A DNA stretch of 64,000 nt from Terriglobia bacterium (GTDB lineage Bacteria; Acidobacteriota; Terriglobia; Acidiferrales; UBA7541). Of the stretch, positions 18,001-24,000 are shown one piece after another. Made by a program: the position numbers. Location: contig OY968796.1 of the NCBI GenBank assembly GCA_963695545.1, positions 2,240,001-2,304,000 of the forward strand. The letters run 5' to 3'. Position 1 is the first letter of the stretch. Each line of letters opens with the position of its first letter.

Positions 18001-21000
18001 TGAGGCACTTTCCAGTATTCGTGACGGCGGCGCGCGAATAGAGATCGTAAAAGGGAATCTTCTATCACGCGAAGACTGCGTCTCTGCGACGAAGGACGCA
18101 TCCGTCATCTTCCATTTGGCTGCCGGCCGAGGCGAGAAATCTTTTCCCGATGCGTTTATCAATTCTGTGGTGACAACGCGGAACTTGCTCGAAGCGAGCT
18201 TGAGCCACAAATGCCTGAAACGATTCGTGAATATCAGTTCGTTTTCGGTTTATTCCAATCAGCGAAAGTTGAAGCGCCAACTGCTGGATGAGTCTTGTCC
18301 GGTTGAAGAGAACCCCGCGCTTCGCGGCGAAGCCTATTGCTTCGCAAAGGCCGAGCAAGACGAAATCGTGGCCGAGTATGGCAGGAAGTTTGGAATTCCA
18401 TATGTCATTATCAGGCCCGGCCAGGTTTATGGACCTGGCAACGAAGGAATTACCGCGCGGGTGGGGATAGGCACATTTGGCGTGTTTCTACATCTCGGCG
18501 GTTCAAACACGATTCCATTCACGTTTGTGGATAACTGTGTGGAAGCCATCGCGCTCGCGGGGTTGAAGAAGGGCACTGATGGAGAAATCTTCAACGTCGT
18601 TGATGACGACCTGCCGTCGAGTCGTGAGTTCTTGCGACTCTACAAAAGGAACGTCAAAAAGTTTAGATCGTTATATGTTCCGCATGCCTTGAGTTACGGG
18701 CTCTGCTATCTGTGGGAGAAATATTCGAGTTGGTCAGAGGACCAGCTGCCTCCCGCTTTCAATCGCAGAAAATGGCACGCCTACTGGAAAAAAACACGCT
18801 ACAGTAACGAAAAACTCAAGATCCGAGTGGGTTGGACTCCAAAAATCGGGACGGAAGAGGGAATGCGGCGGTTTTTCGAAAGCTGCCGAAACGACGAGAG
18901 CGCGTGCTTAAGGTCGCCATAGTTGGCTGCGGCAAAATCGCAGACTCTCACGCCTCGCAAATCCAAAGGATCAGGGGATGCGAGATCGTCGGAGTCTGCG
19001 ATCGAGAGCCGCTGATGGCGCGCCAACTTTTCAGGCGCTTTCCGATCAAGCAATATTTCAGCGACCTGACAGAACTTCTGGCCGAATCCAAGCCGGATGT
19101 CGTCCACATCACGACGCCGCCGCAAGGGCATTACGACATCGCCAAGATCTGCCTAGAATCGGGATGCCACGTTTATGTCGAAAAGCCATTCACCGTTTGG
19201 GAAGAAGAAGCCAAAGCGCTGATCTCACTGGCTGCCGAAAAAGGCCTGAAGATCACCGCAGGTCACGACGATCAGTTCAGCCACGTGGCGCGCCGCATGC
19301 GAACTTTGATTCAAAGGGGTTACCTTGGCGGCGATCCGGTGCATATGGAGAGCTATTATTGCTACGAATTGGCGCGATCGGGGTATGCGGGAGCGCTTCT
19401 CGGCGACAAGCAGCACTGGGTTCGGCGACTGCCGGGGAAGCTGCTGCAAAACATCATCAGCCACGGCATCGCCAGGATTGCTGAGTATATGACGAGCGAA
19501 TCGCCGGACGTAATCGCGCACGGGTTTACGAGCCAGCTTCTTAAGAGCATGGGCGAAACCGAGATCGTGGACGAATTGAGAGTGATCATCAACGACGAAG
19601 GTCGCGCCACCGGGTATTTCACTTTCTCTTCGCAGATGCGCCCAACGCTCCACCAGTTTCGGATTTACGGCCCCAAGAACGGCGTTATTCTCGATCAAGA
19701 TGAGGAGACGCTGATTAAGCTCCGAGGAGCCAGATACAAGAGCTACGCCGAGAAGTTCGTTCCGCCAGTGGATATGGCGGGCCAGAATCTCCGAAACCTC
19801 GGCACCAACCTCAAAATTTTCTTGGAAAGAGATTTCCAGATGAAGTCGGGAATGAAGTATCTGATCGAATCTTTTTATCGTTCGATTGTCGAAGGCACGC
19901 CGGACCCGATTCCGACCCGCGAAATTTTGCTTACCGCCAAAATTATGGAATCTATTTTTGTCCAACTCGGCCAAGGGGCGCCGGTTCAATCGCCCCCGGA
20001 GGCTTCGCTTCATACCGCGCGAACCAGCTGACACAACAATCGCCTATATCCATCGCAGGAACGATGCAATCTTTATGAAACAAAGTGTTTAGCGGCCGGA
20101 AACGCACCGGTGATCACTTCGAGTTCGCAGTCGATTCAGTTGATCTGATTTCTGCAAAGATCAAGATCTAGGTTTCTAGGCTTGTCTACCGAGGAGAGGT
20201 CGCCGCTGGCTAAGGCAGCAGCCAGTTCGCTGGCTGCGGTGGGTAACACCGCCCGAGGGTTCGAGTCCCTTCCCTCTCCGCCACTTTCATCCAGTCCTGT
20301 TGTTGGTGTTCGCCCGCGGCGATTAGCGCCCGCGAAGCGGCTCAGGAAGGCTTGGCCCACATCCAGGGCCAAGAGGTAAATGATTGATGAAGGCACTGAC
20401 TGAGGTTTGTGGAAAGGCGATCGCGGTTCGCGGACGCATCATCCGCATCGGGCACATCGACGGGGACAAGTTCAAGTTCCTGGATGATCCCGAATCTTTG
20501 ATCGCGGGACTGCGAAAATCCGACACGCGGATCGATCTTTTCACTTTCATGCAGGGGCTGCCAGTGAGTTCTCCGAAATATAGCTATCCCATGGAATGGG
20601 ACAATCTGGCCGTTTTGTCGGTCTCGACTTTCGAACAGTGGTGGAATGAGCGCCTCGGCTTCAAGGCTAGGAATAAGGCCAAGCAGGCGGAAAAAAAGAA
20701 GGTTGTCATCCGAGAAGCACCGTTTGACGACAACCTCGTGCGAGGAATCTGGGAGATCTACAACGAGACTCCCGTTCGCCAAGGCAGACCGTTCCCACAC
20801 TACGGCAAGAGTATCGAATCTGTGCGAGCGATGAGCGCGACATTCCTGGACTCGAGCGTTTTTATCGGGGCGTATCTCGGCGAAGAATTGATAGGCTTCA
20901 TCAAACTGACGATGGACGACAGCGGAACGCAAGCCGGAATTCTGCACATCGTTTCGATGATCAAGCACCGCGACAAGGCGCCGACGAACGCCCTGGTCGC

Positions 21001-24000
21001 GCAAGCTGTTCGATCGTGCGCCTCCCGAAAAATTCCTTATCTCGTTTACTCTAACTTCGCGTACGGGAAAAAACAGACGAGTTCACTCAGCGACTTCAAA
21101 GAACGCAACGGATTCGAGCGAGTCAATTTGCCTCGCTATTACGTACCCTTGACACCTTTGGGATGGCTCACGCTTAAGTTGGGCCTTCATCGGCAGCTTG
21201 CTGACTATCTTCCCGAAGCGGTGCTATCGAAGGCCCTTGAGTTTCGCGACTCGTGGTACAACCGCAAGTTTCCAGTCCGCACGCAAGATTCCTAAGGGGT
21301 TAAAACATGCCAGGAATCGTCGGATTGGTTACGAAAAGACCGCGCGAGTGGGCCGAGCGGCAACTTATGCGGATGGTCGAGGCGATCCGCCACGAGTCTT
21401 TCTATGTGACGGGTACATGGATCGACGAGGAGCAAGGGGTATACGTAGGCTGGGCCGCGCGCGAGAATTCGTTCTCCGACGGCATGCCTCTGCGGAATGA
21501 GCGCAAAGATATCGTCCTGGTTTTTTCCGGCGAGGATTATCCCGAACCCGGCACCTCACGGCGTCTGAAAGAGCGCGGACATGAATGCGAAACAGGCGGC
21601 CCATCGTATTTGGTTCATCGCTACGAGGAGGATCCCAATTTCCTTAGGAATCTCAACGGGCGGTTCCACGGATTAATTGCGGACCGCGCGCGCGGTACGA
21701 ACGTGCTCTTCAACGATCGATATGGGATGCATCGGCTTTATTACCAGGAGTCAACCGAAGCTTTCTATTTCGCTGGGGAGGCCAAAGCGATCCTGCAAGT
21801 CCGCCCTGATGCGCGCAGCGCAGATCCGCGCGGCCTCGGTGAGTTCATCGCGTGCGGATGCGTCCTAGAAAATCGCACGCTTTTCCGCGGTATTCATGTA
21901 TTGCCGCCGGGCTCGGCATGGAGATTTCGGGGCGGCACGCTCGAGCAGAAAGCCAGCTACTTCGAGCCTCGTGAATGGGAAACACAAGAGCCTCTCGATG
22001 CGGAAAGCTACTATCGCGAGCTGCGTGACGTTTTCACGGCCAATCTCCCGCGCTACTTTAACGGCAAGGAGGGCCTCGGAGTATCGCTCACCGGTGGTCT
22101 CGATACTCGCATCATCATGGCTTGGCGCAAGGCGCCTCCCGGCTCGCTGCCTTGCTACACCTTTGGAAGCATGTTCCACGAGAATCAAGACGTCCACTTG
22201 GCGCGCCGGGTCGCAGAAATCTGCGGCCAGCCCTACCAGGTCATCACCGTCGGCGATGAATTCCTGTCGAAGTTCGCACACTATGCCGAGCGATCGATTT
22301 ATCTTTCGGACGCATGCGTCGACCTCAGCCGCTCTCCCGACCTTTACGCGAACGAGAAAGCCCGCGAGATAGCGCCCGTGCGGATCGTGGGCACGTATGG
22401 CAGCGAGATGCTTTTGCACGCAGTCATGTTTAAACCGGGAGAGCCTGCGCCGGGATTATTTGATCCGGAGCTTCTGAAGCAGGTGCATGCCGCTCGGGAG
22501 ACCTACGATGCAATTCGCCGCACCAATCCGGTTACGTTTGTTGCTTTCCGCCAGTCGCCATGGCACCACTACGGTATCCTCATGTTGGAGCAAATGCAGG
22601 TCGCCGTTCGCTCGCCGTACCTCGACAACGATTTAGTCAAGACCGTGTACAAGGCACCCGGCTCAATCGCGGAGAACGAGGCAGCCAGACTGCGCCTCAT
22701 CCAGGAGGGCAATCCAGCGCTCGGGAGATTGCGCACTGATCGCGGGGTCGGGGGGCGCAACATTTTAGCCGCTGGCTTTGCGCGGGCATATTACGAGTTC
22801 ACGTTCAAAGCCGAATATGCTTACGACTACGGCATGCCGCAGAGGGTGGCCCAGATCGATCATTTGTTTGCCTCGCTGCATTTAGAACGACTTTGGCTTG
22901 GTCGCCACAAGATGTATCACTTTCGAGTGTGGTATCGCGACCAGTTGGCCAATTACGTTCGCGAAACGCTGCTTGACTCGCGCTCGCTCGCGCGCCCTTA
23001 CCTCAAACCGGATGCGGTGCGAGCGATCGTCGAAAGTCATCTTAAGGGCAATCGCAACTACACCACTGAGATTCACCGGCTACTTTCGCTGGAGTTGTTG
23101 CATCGACTTTTTGTGGATGCCAGATGAACGCGCGGCGCCAAGTTCAAGTGGCCGAAAGAATATAAGATGAATCCGACTGTAGCCCTTCTGGTCTTTGGCG
23201 TCGGGATCGCCGGCCTTTTCTACCTCGATCGCGATAAATCTGCCCACACGTCTATCGCCCTCTGGCTCCCGGTCATTTGGGTTTGGATCATCGGTTCGAG
23301 ACCGCTCTCGGCGTGGCTGAACCTTGGCGCGCCAACCACCGACGCCGGCATGCAGGCTATTCAGCTTGATGGAAGCCAGCCCGACCGGATTTTCTTTCAG
23401 ATTCTGGTGATCTTGGCCGCGATTGTCGTCATCGGCCGAGCGATGCGCACGCGAGCCTTTCTCGCGGCGAACTGGCCGATCTTGATATTCTTTTTTTATT
23501 GTTTAGTCAGCGTCCTCTGGTCCGACTTCCCGGACGTCTCGGCCAAACGCTGGATCAAGGCCATCGGGGATCTATTGATGGTCCTGATTGTCGTAACCGA
23601 TGCCGAGCCGATGGCGGCGCTGAAACGATTCTTTTCTCGGACTGGCTTTATGTTGCTGCCTCCGTCAATTCTTTTAATTAAATATTACGGCGATCTTGGA
23701 CGTTCATACGATCCGTGGTTTGGGTTCACTTACATCACCGGCGTAACCACCAACAAGAATTCGCTTGGGGTCATAACATTTACTCTCTCATTGGCTGCAA
23801 TTTGGCGAATTCTCACACTCCTCCGATCGCCTGAATCACCCGACCGCGGCAGGCATCTGCTGGCTCAAGCGGTCTTGCTTGCATTCGGGATATGGATACT
23901 GTCGATCGCCAACTCAGCGACCTCCATCGCGTGCTTTATCGTCGGCGCGGGATTGATGTTGGTCACGGGCCTGCGGGTCTTTAGACGCCGGCCCGAAGCC

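Follow-up and report, generated by a model that had tools for sequence, protein, structure and literature searches.

A tRNA-shaped gene that lies inside a polysaccharide operon and has no anticodon raises the question of what such a molecule could be used for. In the window, by which we mean the whole 64,000-nt stretch analysed, this gene stands just upstream of g01927, encoding a Fem/MprF-like transferase (Table 1). We consider it probable that the RNA is a non-decoding seryl carrier, a descendant of tRNA-Ser that serves glycan decoration by g01927. A private serine carrier is the most likely role because the serine marks are kept, a hairpin takes the place of the anticodon and the gene is sited before a Fem-like gene in a sugar-polymer operon. 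The operon is headed by a NusG paralogue, followed by an initiating sugar transferase, a GFO, E1 alpha/beta, a lipoyl-NeuD acyltransferase and a DegT aminotransferase; then come an unknown ORF, a GT2, an SDR, another GFO and the RNA with the Fem-like and AsnB-like genes, and last a Wzy-like gene, a flippase, an FkbM methyltransferase and a GT4.

Table 1. Features of the locus, in positions of the window
Feature	Position	Strand	Details and evidence
RNA gene derived from tRNA-Ser, no anticodon, complete with encoded CCA, 91 nt	20193..20283	+	sequence, ARAGORN, MFE
Acceptor stem, 5' strand GGAGAGG	20193..20199	+	partner 20273-20279 (CCTCTCC); 99% of cells keep pairing
D arm	20202..20216	+	stem GCC/GGC, 3 bp (C11-G24 within), loop 9 nt with GG; fold
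Anticodon-arm replacement, 20 nt	20218..20237	+	8 bp, 20218-20225 with 20230-20237; UUCG cap 20226-20229; fold
Long variable arm, class II	20238..20253	+	stem 5 bp, loop 6 nt; fold, covariation
T arm	20255..20271	+	stem GAGGG/CCCUU (G49.U65, A50-U64), loop UUCGAGU; fold
Extra C separating T stem from acceptor stem	20272..20272	+	sequence
Discriminator G73 and encoded CCA	20280..20283	+	GCCA in 68/70 homologues
g01927, Fem/MprF-like tandem-GNAT transferase	20384..21295	+	302 aa from ATG 20387; GAGG 20373-20376; predicted fold
AsnB-like adenylating ligase, N-terminal Cys nucleophile missing (MPGIVG start)	21307..23127	+	Pfam GATase_7, Asn_synthase
Same-strand polysaccharide operon	7701..28661	+	Pfam and NCBIfam scans

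The survey's finding of a 91-nt tRNA-Ser-like gene at this site, with intact acceptor stem, G73 and CCA, agrees with the sequence, with the fold and with the comparison to tRNA-Ser. The ARAGORN call on which it relied was also reproduced: a 'tRNA-???' of 93 nt (20191-20283) whose 'anticodon' has two nucleotides. Both the MFE and the centroid structure of the 91-nt RNA are the cloverleaf (-47.4 kcal/mol, z -3.3), and none of 200 shuffled sequences folded as well. It has the same acceptor stem, G73 and CCA as tRNA-Ser GCU, GGA and CGA of the host genome, which possesses four decoding tRNA-Ser and one SerRS, the anticodon-less RNA being supernumerary. Searching the genome with a covariance model (R1) gave one copy of the RNA at 103.6 bits; the runners-up were tRNA-Ser genes (57.9-39.4 bits), and Leu tRNAs scored at most 39.

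Conservation was evaluated on 70 full-length RNA homologues spanning several families of Acidobacteriota, 28 from genome loci and 42 selected by pattern from metagenomes. In the unfitted MAFFT alignment of the 28 genome sequences, 96.4% of 776 cells are paired versus 46-64% in slid controls, with compensatory changes in 10 of 28 pairs; the corresponding values for the 42 metagenome sequences, whose alignment was fitted to the model, are 97.8% and 13 of 28, and slid controls over both sets range from 43 to 64%. These counts bear out the covariation claimed by the survey, including that of the helix replacing the anticodon arm, where 6 of 8 pairs (28 sequences) and 7 of 8 (42 sequences) show compensatory changes. 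The replacement arm measures 20 nt in 67 of the 70 homologues and never the 17 nt of an anticodon arm, while its loop sequence varies (CUUG 26, UUCG 4, CUUA 4, others). Since a closed 8-bp helix with a tetraloop stands in place of the anticodon arm, and none of the homologues has a 17-nt arm, the RNA should be unable to decode. The description of this element as an 8-bp helix with a tetraloop is correct for the window RNA but not for ten of the 70 homologues, which have 6 bp and an 8-nt loop. The variable stem keeps 98.6% of its cells paired, with compensatory changes in four of five pairs in the metagenome set, and in 14 of 42 sequences pair 51-63 covaries from G-C to A-U, which supports the T-stem register as drawn. 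Concerning the extra C before the acceptor stem, also noted previously, it is present in the window RNA and in 65 of 70 homologues, while structures lacking it can be drawn for the other five (L035, L029, L077, L121 and L139); together with the shortened D loop, it might weaken recognition by SerRS. Judged from the alignments, selection acts on the RNA as a tRNA-shaped molecule.

The homologues were then scored against the bacterial serine identity set tabulated in PMC9976931. G73 is present in 69 of 70 and C11-G24 in all (28/28 and 42/42). G2-C71 occurs in every one of the 27 scorable genome sequences and also in 42 of 42 metagenome sequences, but there the 5' base was preset by the search pattern. 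G4-C69 is kept in 65 of 70, and G30-C40 in 50, with G.U at that position in another 14. By these comparisons, the RNA retains the whole bacterial serine identity set, including the variable stem of 5 bp, which belongs to the long arm that SerRS chiefly recognises.

The association between the RNA and the Fem-like gene was evaluated from both sides. In the window, g01927 starts 100-103 nt 3' of the RNA end. Of 80 genome loci fetched by protein, the survey counted 26 with the RNA in front of the gene; we recovered 27 by blastn and 28 by covariance model, always on the same strand and about 40-240 nt upstream. When metagenomes were fetched by the RNA only, a g01927 homologue was found 30-280 nt downstream in 29 of the 35 loci with at least 400 nt of sequence after the RNA; three loci with less than 400 nt show the start of a Fem-like gene. 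Within 1.5 kb, the other six contain Acyl_transf_3 (three loci), Wzy (one), another Fem-like gene (one) and an inverted fragment (one). At L166 the RNA lies upstream of a different FemAB-family ORF (PF02388, 24.8 bits). Few genomes encode a g01927-type protein (7 of 400 in the phylum), and whole-genome covariance searches found the RNA in none of 150 phylum genomes and in two of 150 class genomes; these two matches and that of L210, a genome reached through the protein search, all adjoin the gene. The RNA had been reported as missing from other UBA7541 genomes, which is not true of the genomes sampled here: G735/L234, of the same family, carries it at 89 bits. It is an accessory feature, as was already proposed, being absent from 52 of the 80 close g01927 loci. 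Covariance searches of five genomes with such loci detected no RNA anywhere, with best matches of at most 59 bits (the level of tRNA-Ser), and on a quick protein tree its presence implies about 12 gains or losses, at least four of them forced. From the 52 loci and the five genomes it follows that the Fem-like enzyme can do without the RNA.

A Pfam scan of g01927 itself gave nothing above threshold, and among 70 relatives it returned Acetyltransf_1 (33), Acetyltransf_6 (28), FemAB (18) and LPG_synthase_C (4). The AF2 model (pLDDT 94.2) is a tandem GNAT whose best matches are Sbb17/Sba18 (Z 18.0-18.2), FemX (16.8-18.0), FemA (15.9) and MprF (13.2-15.2). The top 21 VIA rows are exclusively aminoacyl-tRNA-dependent transferases, spanning both GNAT halves, and acetyl-CoA tandem GNATs rank below, at an rmsd of 7 A or as half-length matches only, an order also given by the survey. 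The best matches, Sbb17/Sba18, are aminoacyl-tRNA-dependent and act on an amino sugar. F238-K239 is nearly invariant and falls roughly at the position of FemX K305, a putative equivalent of the catalytic lysine, and HRDKAP is found where the CoA-binding glycine loop usually sits. This ranking of predicted folds suggests that the acyl donor is an aminoacyl-tRNA.

At each point that sequence analysis can address, the results favoured the survey's reading of the RNA as a carrier. On this hypothesis, the RNA would be transcribed with the polysaccharide operon and excised by the ordinary tRNA-processing enzymes. The single SerRS would charge it through the variable arm, G73, the acceptor stem and C11-G24 without reading an anticodon, and the closed 8-bp helix with its tetraloop would leave it without codon pairing. 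The T stem (G49.U65, a weak 50-64 pair and the extra base) would probably bind EF-Tu poorly. The predicted fold of g01927 is consistent with an enzyme that removes the seryl group from the 3' end and transfers it to a sugar intermediate that the operon's own enzymes produce, at an amino (or hydroxyl) group, and the Cys-less AsnB-like ligase may perform a coupled, ATP-dependent amide-forming step. The carrier would be optional, close relatives of the enzyme presumably using ordinary Ser-tRNA. The principle, a tRNA outside translation, is that of the staphylococcal non-proteogenic tRNAs, of which this RNA would be a variant without anticodon.

It is nevertheless conceivable, if unlikely, that the RNA is never charged and is a mere cut site for RNase P and 3' trimming, or a stability module, defining where the g01927-AsnB message begins. 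RNase P recognises the acceptor/T domain and CCA. The RNA is internal to a long same-strand operon, neither a promoter-like site nor a conserved motif was found 5' of it, and the preceding ORF commonly stops within about 50 nt. A pure RNase P signal would likewise retain G73, CCA and the acceptor/T domain. However, although such a signal could keep G73, processing does not require it, and the long variable arm, whose stem covaries, and C11-G24 are kept while superfluous for processing. A cut site also leaves unexplained the pairing with Fem-like genes, L166 included, and the ThrRS-read bases in the Thr-like tRNAs downstream of related genes (see below), and 52 of 80 operons manage without it.

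Quite unlikely, in our view, is that serine is altered while bound to the RNA, whether by the Cys-less AsnB-like enzyme or by some other enzyme of the operon, before g01927 transfers it, as in tRNA-Sec and Asp-tRNA-Asn, where the amino acid changes on the tRNA. The only Rfam match of the RNA is tRNA-Sec (30.5 bits, below the gathering score of 47), and the RNA has G49.U65, one of the pairs through which E. coli tRNA-Sec rejects EF-Tu. The strict 20-nt arm could serve a second protein, and in most loci the Fem-like gene is followed by the AsnB-like gene, whose product starts x-P-G-I/L in 75 of 75 homologues, with the nucleophilic Cys of the glutaminase in none. This gene is, however, just as well conserved in the 52 RNA-less loci, and the RNA has neither the 8/5 or 9/4 acceptor-T geometry nor the D stem of 6 bp that characterise tRNA-Sec. 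Enzymes of the AsnB type act by activating a carboxylate, and tRNA-bound serine offers none that is free; Pfam and NCBIfam scans revealed no SelA-, PSTK- or GatCAB-like genes in the operon.

Very unlikely is a role as a non-donor scaffold, decoy or sensor of serine supply for g01927 or SerRS, the acyl group coming from an ordinary aminoacyl-tRNA or acyl-CoA. Most loci of the enzyme family function without the RNA, and among relatives of g01927 acetyl-CoA GNAT models and Fem models are hit equally often. Against this, the 3' GCCA and the identity set are kept as in charged species, the fold ranking favours users of aminoacyl-tRNA, and no regulatory feature was seen, in particular no terminator/anti-terminator pairing with the leader. 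A functionless, decaying tRNA-Ser pseudogene or integration-site remnant, as the missing anticodon in ARAGORN and the damaged 3' ends of two of 28 genome homologues (L041 and L039) could suggest, is hardly credible given the covariation, the constant arm length, the recurring stable tetraloops, the fixed position relative to one gene family and the lack of any integrase seen next to it in the Pfam scans.

Returning to the private carrier, our literature search found no description of a serine-marked, anticodon-less tRNA paired with a Fem-like enzyme. Among even genome samples of homologues, a tRNA or tRNA-like gene directly adjoins the Fem-like gene on the same strand in 20 of 59 loci: 5 are Ser-like, 12 Thr-like, and one each Gly, Cys and Asn. 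The more distant relatives of g01927 thus have further private, decoding-impaired tRNAs, which is new here. The Thr-like tRNAs have G35 and U36 in 12 of 12, with C (6), U (4) or A (2) at position 34, and five lack U33. Of the anticodon bases just those read by ThrRS are retained, a pattern expected if selection acts on charging and not on decoding.

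The tRNA-Ser-like RNA of the window folds as a cloverleaf in which a hairpin, the replacement arm, stands in place of the anticodon arm (see the table). With -47.4 kcal/mol (z -3.3, none of 200 shuffled sequences being as stable), the cloverleaf is obtained both as the minimum free energy fold and as the centroid. ARAGORN reported it as 'tRNA-???' with a 2-nt 'anticodon', and what is found at that place is an arm of 8 bp and a 4-nt loop, from which the canonical 5-bp anticodon stem, 7-nt loop, U33 and anticodon are absent. When known RNA families were searched for in Rfam, the top match was tRNA-Sec at 30.5 bits, below the gathering score of 47, and besides it only a chance match to a plastid UTR on the other strand was returned. 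The acceptor stem, G73 and CCA are letter-identical to those of the genome's own tRNA-Ser(GCU), (GGA) and (CGA), which have no base between T stem and acceptor stem, where the RNA has its extra C. The complete identity set of bacterial SerRS, given in an excerpt of PMC9976931 as G73, C72, G2-C71, R4-Y69, C11-G24, a large variable region and G30-C40, is present in the window RNA. Since the genome already has four decoding tRNA-Ser (GCU, UGA, GGA and CGA) and one canonical SerRS, the RNA is supernumerary; it stands outside the decoding set and, for want of an anticodon loop, cannot decode, and in these two respects it resembles a non-proteogenic tRNA. A covariance model built from its homologues found a single copy in the genome (103.6 bits), followed by tRNA-Ser genes at 57.9, 52.9, 43.7 and 39.4 bits and then by tRNA-Leu and tRNA-Tyr. 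Two other identities were rejected, namely tmRNA, since a message is missing and the genome encodes its tmRNA elsewhere, and an expanded-anticodon suppressor, since the homologues have either closed tetraloops or variable 8-mers that lack U33.

Features of the RNA and of the two genes that follow it (positions along the window)
Feature	Position	Strand	Description
tRNA-Ser-like RNA	20193-20283	+	91-nt cloverleaf, from sequence and fold
Acceptor stem of the RNA			GGAGAGG/CCUCUCC, 7 bp
Positions 8-9 of the RNA			U and C
D arm of the RNA			3-bp stem GCC/GGC, 9-nt loop containing GG
Replacement arm of the RNA			one A, then 8-bp helix with UUCG cap
Variable arm of the RNA			5-bp stem, 6-nt loop
T arm of the RNA			GAGGG-UUCGAGU-CCCUU
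3' part of the RNA			one extra C, 3' acceptor strand, G73, encoded CCA
g01927 (Fem-like)	20384/20387-21295	+	ORF about 100 nt after the RNA
AsnB-like gene	21307-23127	+	GATase_7 (PF13537) and Asn_synthase (PF00733) by Pfam

Homologues of the RNA were collected in two sets. In the best 80 genome loci encoding a relative of the downstream ORF, the RNA was detected 27 times by blastn and 28 times by the covariance model, always on the strand of the Fem-like gene and with its end some 40-240 nt ahead of the protein match. These 28 sequences were aligned with MAFFT without fitting to any structure, and 96.4% of the 776 cells pair, against 46-64% when the partners are slid, although the structure tested, being the window RNA's own fold, is somewhat favoured over the slid controls. 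Compensatory changes occur at 10 of the 28 pairs, six of them in the replacement helix, and none of 500 shuffles reaches the observed values. The second set comes from a metagenome scan that used the 5' pattern of the RNA alone and yielded 42 sequences; here 97.8% of the cells pair and 13 of the 28 pairs show compensatory changes (seven of eight in the replacement helix and four of five in the variable stem), in an alignment that was fitted to the model and whose acceptor 5' strand is fixed by the search pattern. This covariation excludes the possibility that the RNA is a pseudogene.

Considering all 70 homologues, the replacement arm measures 20 nt in 67 of them and 17 nt in none. At least 44 have 8 bp and a tetraloop (CUUG in 26, UUCG in 4, CUUA in 4, UUUA in 3, and others), 10 have 6 bp and a variable 8-nt loop, and in another form, seen in 10, the outermost pair of the helix alone is mismatched. 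From these varied loops on an arm of constant size it is evident that the loop sequence is free while length and pairing are kept, and such a strict 20-nt arm suggests that the L-shape or the length of the arm still matters for some partner. The 3' GCCA is found in 68 and the extra C in 65 of the 70; C11-G24 is present in all and G30-C40 in 50, plus 14 as G.U. In alignment A1 the positions G16/G17, T69, C70 and A72 are invariant and the variable stem has 5 bp, and the exchange of G-C and A-U at pair 51-63, seen in 14 of the 42 metagenome sequences, supports the canonical T-arm register. That G73, the acceptor pairs, C11-G24, mostly G30-C40 and the long variable arm are all kept would be hard to explain otherwise than by aminoacylation being the selected property.

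G49.U65 opens the T stem in the majority of homologues, followed by a G.U or A-U pair. EF-Tu affinity is set by the first three T-stem pairs (excerpt of PMC7826273), and G49.U65 is among the pairs by which E. coli tRNA-Sec rejects EF-Tu (excerpt of PMC9976931); the extra C lies at the same surface as these pairs. Considering G49.U65, the weak 50-64 pair and the extra base, we infer that weak binding of the RNA by EF-Tu is plausible.

The loci fetched by the RNA pattern allow the linkage to be followed from the RNA to the protein. A full RNA is found in 41 of these 80 metagenome loci, while the remaining 39 match the pattern alone. Where at least 400 nt are available downstream of the RNA, a same-strand homologue of g01927 follows at a distance of 30-280 nt in 29 of 35 metagenome loci, and the first residues of one are visible in three shorter loci (L130, L145 and L093). 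In L093 there are two tandem copies of the RNA, at 213-304 and 392-483 (-), with 87.9 and 66.7 bits, before the start of the g01927 homologue. Among the exceptions, L140, L152 and L159 have an Acyl_transf_3 membrane acyltransferase downstream of the RNA, assigned by Pfam on L159 and by look-alike translation on the other two; L144 has a Wzy-like gene and L167 an inverted fragment. In L166 a different FemAB-family ORF of 373 aa (162-1283, (-)) lies 118 nt downstream (PF02388, 24.8 bits, cut-off 24). A comparison of the g01927 family with this ORF by hhalign found no similarity (probability 0.2); it is a separate Fem lineage, and the carrier RNA may serve more than one such lineage.

When the RNA model was run against whole genomes, matches were obtained in none of 150 evenly drawn genomes of the phylum and in two of 150 of the class; both of these RNAs, and a third reached via the protein (L210), lie directly upstream of a Fem-like gene. 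In five genomes with an RNA-less Fem-like locus nothing scored above the level of tRNA-Ser genome-wide (at most 59 bits), and ARAGORN found no other tRNAs in 52 RNA-less close loci. The Fem-like protein is itself sparse in the phylum sample (7 of 400 genomes), and by profile it was found in 56 of 400 class genomes, a tally that takes in three unpublished genomes. On a quick maximum likelihood tree of 81 proteins, presence of the RNA requires 12 changes, against about 24 with the labels shuffled, and at least four are forced by well-supported branches; within this family the RNA is thus old and its presence clustered, and it has been lost or moved more than once. It is an accessory feature.

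Other members of the family were inspected in 59 homologue loci from the phylum and class samples, with the window's own locus and L241 (unpublished) excluded. A tRNA or tRNA-like gene lies directly beside the Fem-like gene, on the same strand, in 20 of them; by our own estimate, from about 50 tRNA genes per 4-5 Mb, chance would place a tRNA within a few hundred bases in well below 1% of loci. Five loci (L210, L218, L234, L235 and L250) have a Ser-like RNA upstream, and twelve (L214, L215, L216, L246, L254, L256, L258, L259, L262, L266, L267 and L268) a Thr-like tRNA immediately downstream. The latter belong to one subfamily, 38-45% identical to g01927, in which 12 of 13 loci carry the Thr-like tRNA. 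There is also a tRNA-Gly(UCC) 25 nt upstream of the Fem-like gene (L249:1401-1476), a tRNA-Cys(GCA) about 170 nt upstream (L264:1238-1310) and, downstream, an odd tRNA-Asn (GUU, U37, weak T stem; L212:2472-2546).

The twelve Thr-like tRNAs all have G35 and U36, and all have G1-C72, C2-G71, G4-C69 and G5-C68, the acceptor pairs that are read by ThrRS (excerpt of PMC9976931). Position 34 is C in six, U in four and A in two, U33 is changed to C or A in five, one has an 8-nt loop and, as we parse the 3' parts, a bulged base is required in the T arms. In L216 and L259 the T-loop has UGC instead of UUC, like the staphylococcal non-proteogenic tRNA-Gly (excerpt of PMC7826273). The private tRNAs thus seem to keep what their own synthetase needs, whereas what the ribosome needs may decay.

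Concerning g01927 itself, Pfam gave no family at E <=0.01, the thresholds of FemAB (PF02388) and LPG_synthase_C (PF09924) not being reached, and NCBIfam gave only Sat2 (E 0.026). A sequence search of the PDB with g01927 alone returned nothing useful; with the family profile it returned only weak single-domain GNATs (PaiA, E 3e-4) and no Fem entry. Unannotated relatives are found in thousands (7605 of 8000 scored candidates; 1042 cluster representatives), and among 70 diverse ones Acetyltransf_1 is touched by 33, Acetyltransf_6 by 28, FemAB by 18 (best E 2.7e-7) and LPG_synthase_C by 4, the FemAB matches being confined to profile positions 148-218. The AlphaFold2 model built with the alignment of these 70 relatives (pLDDT 94.2, pTM 0.90) has two fused GNAT domains in the Fem arrangement. 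Foldseek ranked first the aminoacyl-tRNA-dependent peptide synthases Sbb17 and Sba18 (E 1e-11, TM 0.61), whose structures were determined with streptothrisamine, an amino-sugar compound, followed by Weissella FemX and MprF domains. A second structural aligner gave Z 18.0-18.2 for Sbb17 and Sba18, 16.8-18.0 for FemX, 15.9 for FemA and 13.2-15.2 for MprF and related domains; the matches to aminoacyl-tRNA users span 222-256 residues of the model and occupy all of the first 21 rows, and the first tandem GNAT using acetyl-CoA is VipF (Z 13.4, rmsd 7.1).

In GNATs that bind CoA the pyrophosphate loop is glycine-rich, Q/R-x-x-G-x-G/A; what we take to be its place in the g01927 family reads HRDKxPxNAL (H-R-D-K-A-P in g01927). 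This loop, together with the private tRNAs beside relatives, lends indirect support to a donor that would be aminoacyl-tRNA and not acyl-CoA. F238 and K239 are kept in at least 90% of sequences, and, judged from the aligned ranges 1..275 / 37..337, K239 would fall within about 4 residues of FemX K305. K305 of FemX, like K329 of DhpH-C, is treated in the Fem literature as the catalytic lysine of domain 2 (excerpt of PMC12945691).

We consider it likely that the RNA is a serine carrier, charged by SerRS and held off the ribosome, that acts as donor for g01927. SerRS would charge the RNA with serine, the charged RNA would be kept away from translation, and g01927 would transfer the seryl group from it to an amino sugar of a glycan precursor. 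A serine carrier can lose its anticodon entirely because its synthetase ignores the anticodon. That the acceptor belongs to the class of amino sugars of glycan precursors has about an even chance; the closest solved relative of g01927 acylates the amine of an amino sugar.

It could also be hypothesized that the RNA is purely a 'cut-here' element for RNase P, which would account for its position in the operon and for the absence of a promoter. Indeed no sigma-70-like site was found, no shared motif was seen by eye in the 90 nt 5' of the RNA across 29 loci, and between the RNA and g01927 there is no terminator-like hairpin; the two weak ones that were found, one after the upstream gene (20051-20066) and one inside g01927, are within shuffle expectation (mean 1.2, sd 1.4). 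However such an element leaves unexplained why the variable arm and the determinants of the D stem are conserved, why the RNA goes with Fem-like genes in particular and how the Thr-type pattern arose, and we regard it as improbable. Both the fold ranking and the recurring tRNA neighbours speak against a CoA-dependent GNAT that has an unrelated tRNA-like gene beside it. For a regulatory mimic there is nothing specific in favour.

The serine-carrier reading can be set beside the contents of the operon, which starts with a NusG paralogue and an initiating transferase and includes a DegT/PseC-type aminotransferase, two GFO-type sugar dehydrogenases, an SDR, glycosyltransferases, a Wzy-like protein and a flippase; plausibly this operon supplies the acceptor for g01927. 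In nearly every locus, whether or not a tRNA is present and in the Thr subfamily as well, the Fem-like gene is followed by the AsnB-like gene. The product of the latter starts with MPGIVG, and residue 2 is Pro, not the Cys nucleophile, in 75 of 75 homologues. The adenylating Asn_synthase domain is there with its PP-loop, the SLTGGLDT of the translation being what we take for the motif SGGxDS. Since the Cys nucleophile is absent and the Asn_synthase domain kept, the protein would be an ATP-dependent, glutamine-independent ligase that forms amides by adenylation. One conceivable substrate is a uronate carboxyl on the same sugar; that it acts instead on the residue bound to the carrier has a low probability.

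On a broader scale, soil bacteria may have a hitherto undescribed system of Fem-like glycan aminoacyl-transferases with their own non-decoding tRNAs (Ser, Thr, perhaps Gly, Cys or Asn) and a Cys-less AsnB-like ligase, a reading to which we give slightly better than even chances. Its bolder tail is that the amino acid would be chemically altered on the carrier before transfer.

Other observations concern the same operon. At window 10940-14072 (+) it encodes E1 alpha, E1 beta and a fusion of a lipoyl domain with a hexapeptide sugar acyltransferase of the NeuD/PglB type, a set that has the look of a 2-oxoacid-dehydrogenase-style system supplying acyl groups for the N-acylation of sugars. The Polysacc_synt_3 flippase at 24646-25991 (+) consists of two overlapping ORFs, 24646-25314 and 25143-25991, and this split reflects a frameshift, an error of sequencing or a broken gene; another flippase, at 30895-32469, is intact. 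Two long ORFs in or beside the operon, 15550-16722 (+) of 390 aa and 28711-30570 (-) of 619 aa, have no match in Pfam or NCBIfam.

Several components of the proposed system are already known. In S. aureus and S. epidermidis, the only species in which non-proteogenic tRNAs have so far been detected according to the excerpted text of PMC7826273, the tRNA-Gly NP1-NP3 are extra tRNAs reserved for the Fem transferases FmhB, FemA and FemB. Like the RNA, their genes are beyond the decoding set, and they resemble the role proposed here in being charged by the housekeeping synthetase, in having T-stem and T-loop changes that make them a poor fit for EF-Tu and the ribosome, and in supplying a Fem-family transferase, an arrangement that keeps glycan synthesis from competing with translation; however they have a normal anticodon arm (UCC), are of class I and glycine-specific, and serve peptidoglycan (same excerpt). 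In the RNA, by contrast, the anticodon arm is gone, the class is II and the marks are those of serine, and the gene sits inside a polysaccharide operon of an Acidobacterium, about 100 nt before its enzyme. To our knowledge the staphylococcal genes are not beside fem genes.

Aminoacyl-tRNA-dependent acylation of amino sugars is known as well, from streptothricin-type antibiotics: Sbb17 and Sba18 (PDB 9wqw, 9wqx, 9wqy) and Orf11 of the BD-12 pathway are amide synthases of this kind that act on streptothrisamine (PDB titles; excerpt of PMC12945691). Sbb17 and Sba18 are the best structural match of g01927 (227-231 residues, rmsd 3.2-3.4), and as tandem GNATs they move an amino acid from aminoacyl-tRNA to the amino group of an amino-sugar compound, but their sequence identity to g01927 is 12-15% and they are Streptomyces antibiotic enzymes using ordinary Gly-tRNA. 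The excerpt of PMC12945691 has no mention of a private tRNA or polysaccharide context for these enzymes. FemX of Weissella viridescens, FemX and FemA of S. aureus and the C-terminal domain of MprF (PDB 1ne9, 4ii9, 6snr, 1lrz, 7duw and others; Z 13.2-18.0) have the two-GNAT architecture of g01927 and, like it, a basic helix that opens domain 2; judged by aligned ranges, the F-K pair of g01927, towards the C-terminal end of domain 2, would fall close to the FemX lysine. Unlike them, g01927 has neither the coiled-coil arm nor the membrane domain and stays below the Pfam thresholds of their families. Its acceptor is presumably a sugar nucleotide or a lipid-linked glycan.

Odd SerRS-type tRNAs are already known from Acidobacteria, as excerpts of Mukai et al. 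(PMC5389517) describe. These tRNA-Sec and allo-tRNAs share with the RNA the class II form with long variable arm, G73, a lengthened anticodon stem, an irregular acceptor/T junction and the phylum; however their acceptor-T helix has 13 bp (8/5, 9/4) or 12 bp (8/4, 9/3), the D stem has 6 bp with a 4-nt loop, and the anticodon is real (PMC5389517). A tetraloop-capped anticodon arm was not found in the excerpted text of PMC5389517. The RNA has instead a 7/5 helix with one unpaired C, a 3-bp D stem, a 9-nt D loop and no anticodon loop. The tRNA-like domain of tmRNA is an aminoacylated tRNA mimic without an anticodon and without D and anticodon arms; tmRNA is alanine-specific, contains a message and is accompanied to the ribosome by SmpB. 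The absence of an anticodon is common to both, whereas the RNA has a full cloverleaf and no coding part. In the valanimycin pathway, which has its own SerRS, VlmL, the private component is this second synthetase, while here it is the tRNA and the genome has a single SerRS. VlmA of the same pathway is Fem-like and Ser-tRNA-dependent and brings serine into a non-ribosomal product (excerpt of PMC12945691).

In the literature outside subscription journals we did not find a full-length tRNA with a closed hairpin for its anticodon arm, an anticodon-less tRNA beside a transferase in a polysaccharide operon, or the wider set of private tRNAs around the g01927 enzyme family; the nearest matches for an anticodon-less tRNA were an aminoacyl-tRNA synthetase paralogue and a cleaved tRNA. 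If the proposed reading is true, the RNA would be the first natural full-length tRNA serving purely as an amino-acid handle. For sixty years, non-proteogenic tRNAs with a dedicated role have been a curiosity of staphylococci, and a tRNA without an anticodon but with its synthetase marks would show that evolution can separate the carrier role from the decoding role; it would also offer synthetic biology a ready-made, translation-orthogonal aminoacyl carrier. The finding points to aminoacyl-tRNA-dependent decoration of surface glycans with amino acids in abundant soil bacteria, a chemistry for which peptidoglycan, lipids and a few antibiotics have until now been the main examples. The Ser-type and Thr-type carriers are a natural experiment on tRNA identity, in which what is kept is what the synthetase reads. 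The idea can be tested directly, as one carrier of the RNA, the Acidobacterium isolate behind L061 (RNA at 101 bits), is in culture.

Outside the window, the genome has two long-variable-arm tRNAs with a UAU anticodon, of 93 nt and 97 nt, at C1:344766-344860 (-) and C1:2007148-2007327 (+), which resemble the Acidobacteria allo-tRNAs as excerpted from PMC5389517. In the second of these the acceptor stem is 8 bp long, and an odd tRNA-Gly-like gene of 69 nt precedes it by 15 nt.
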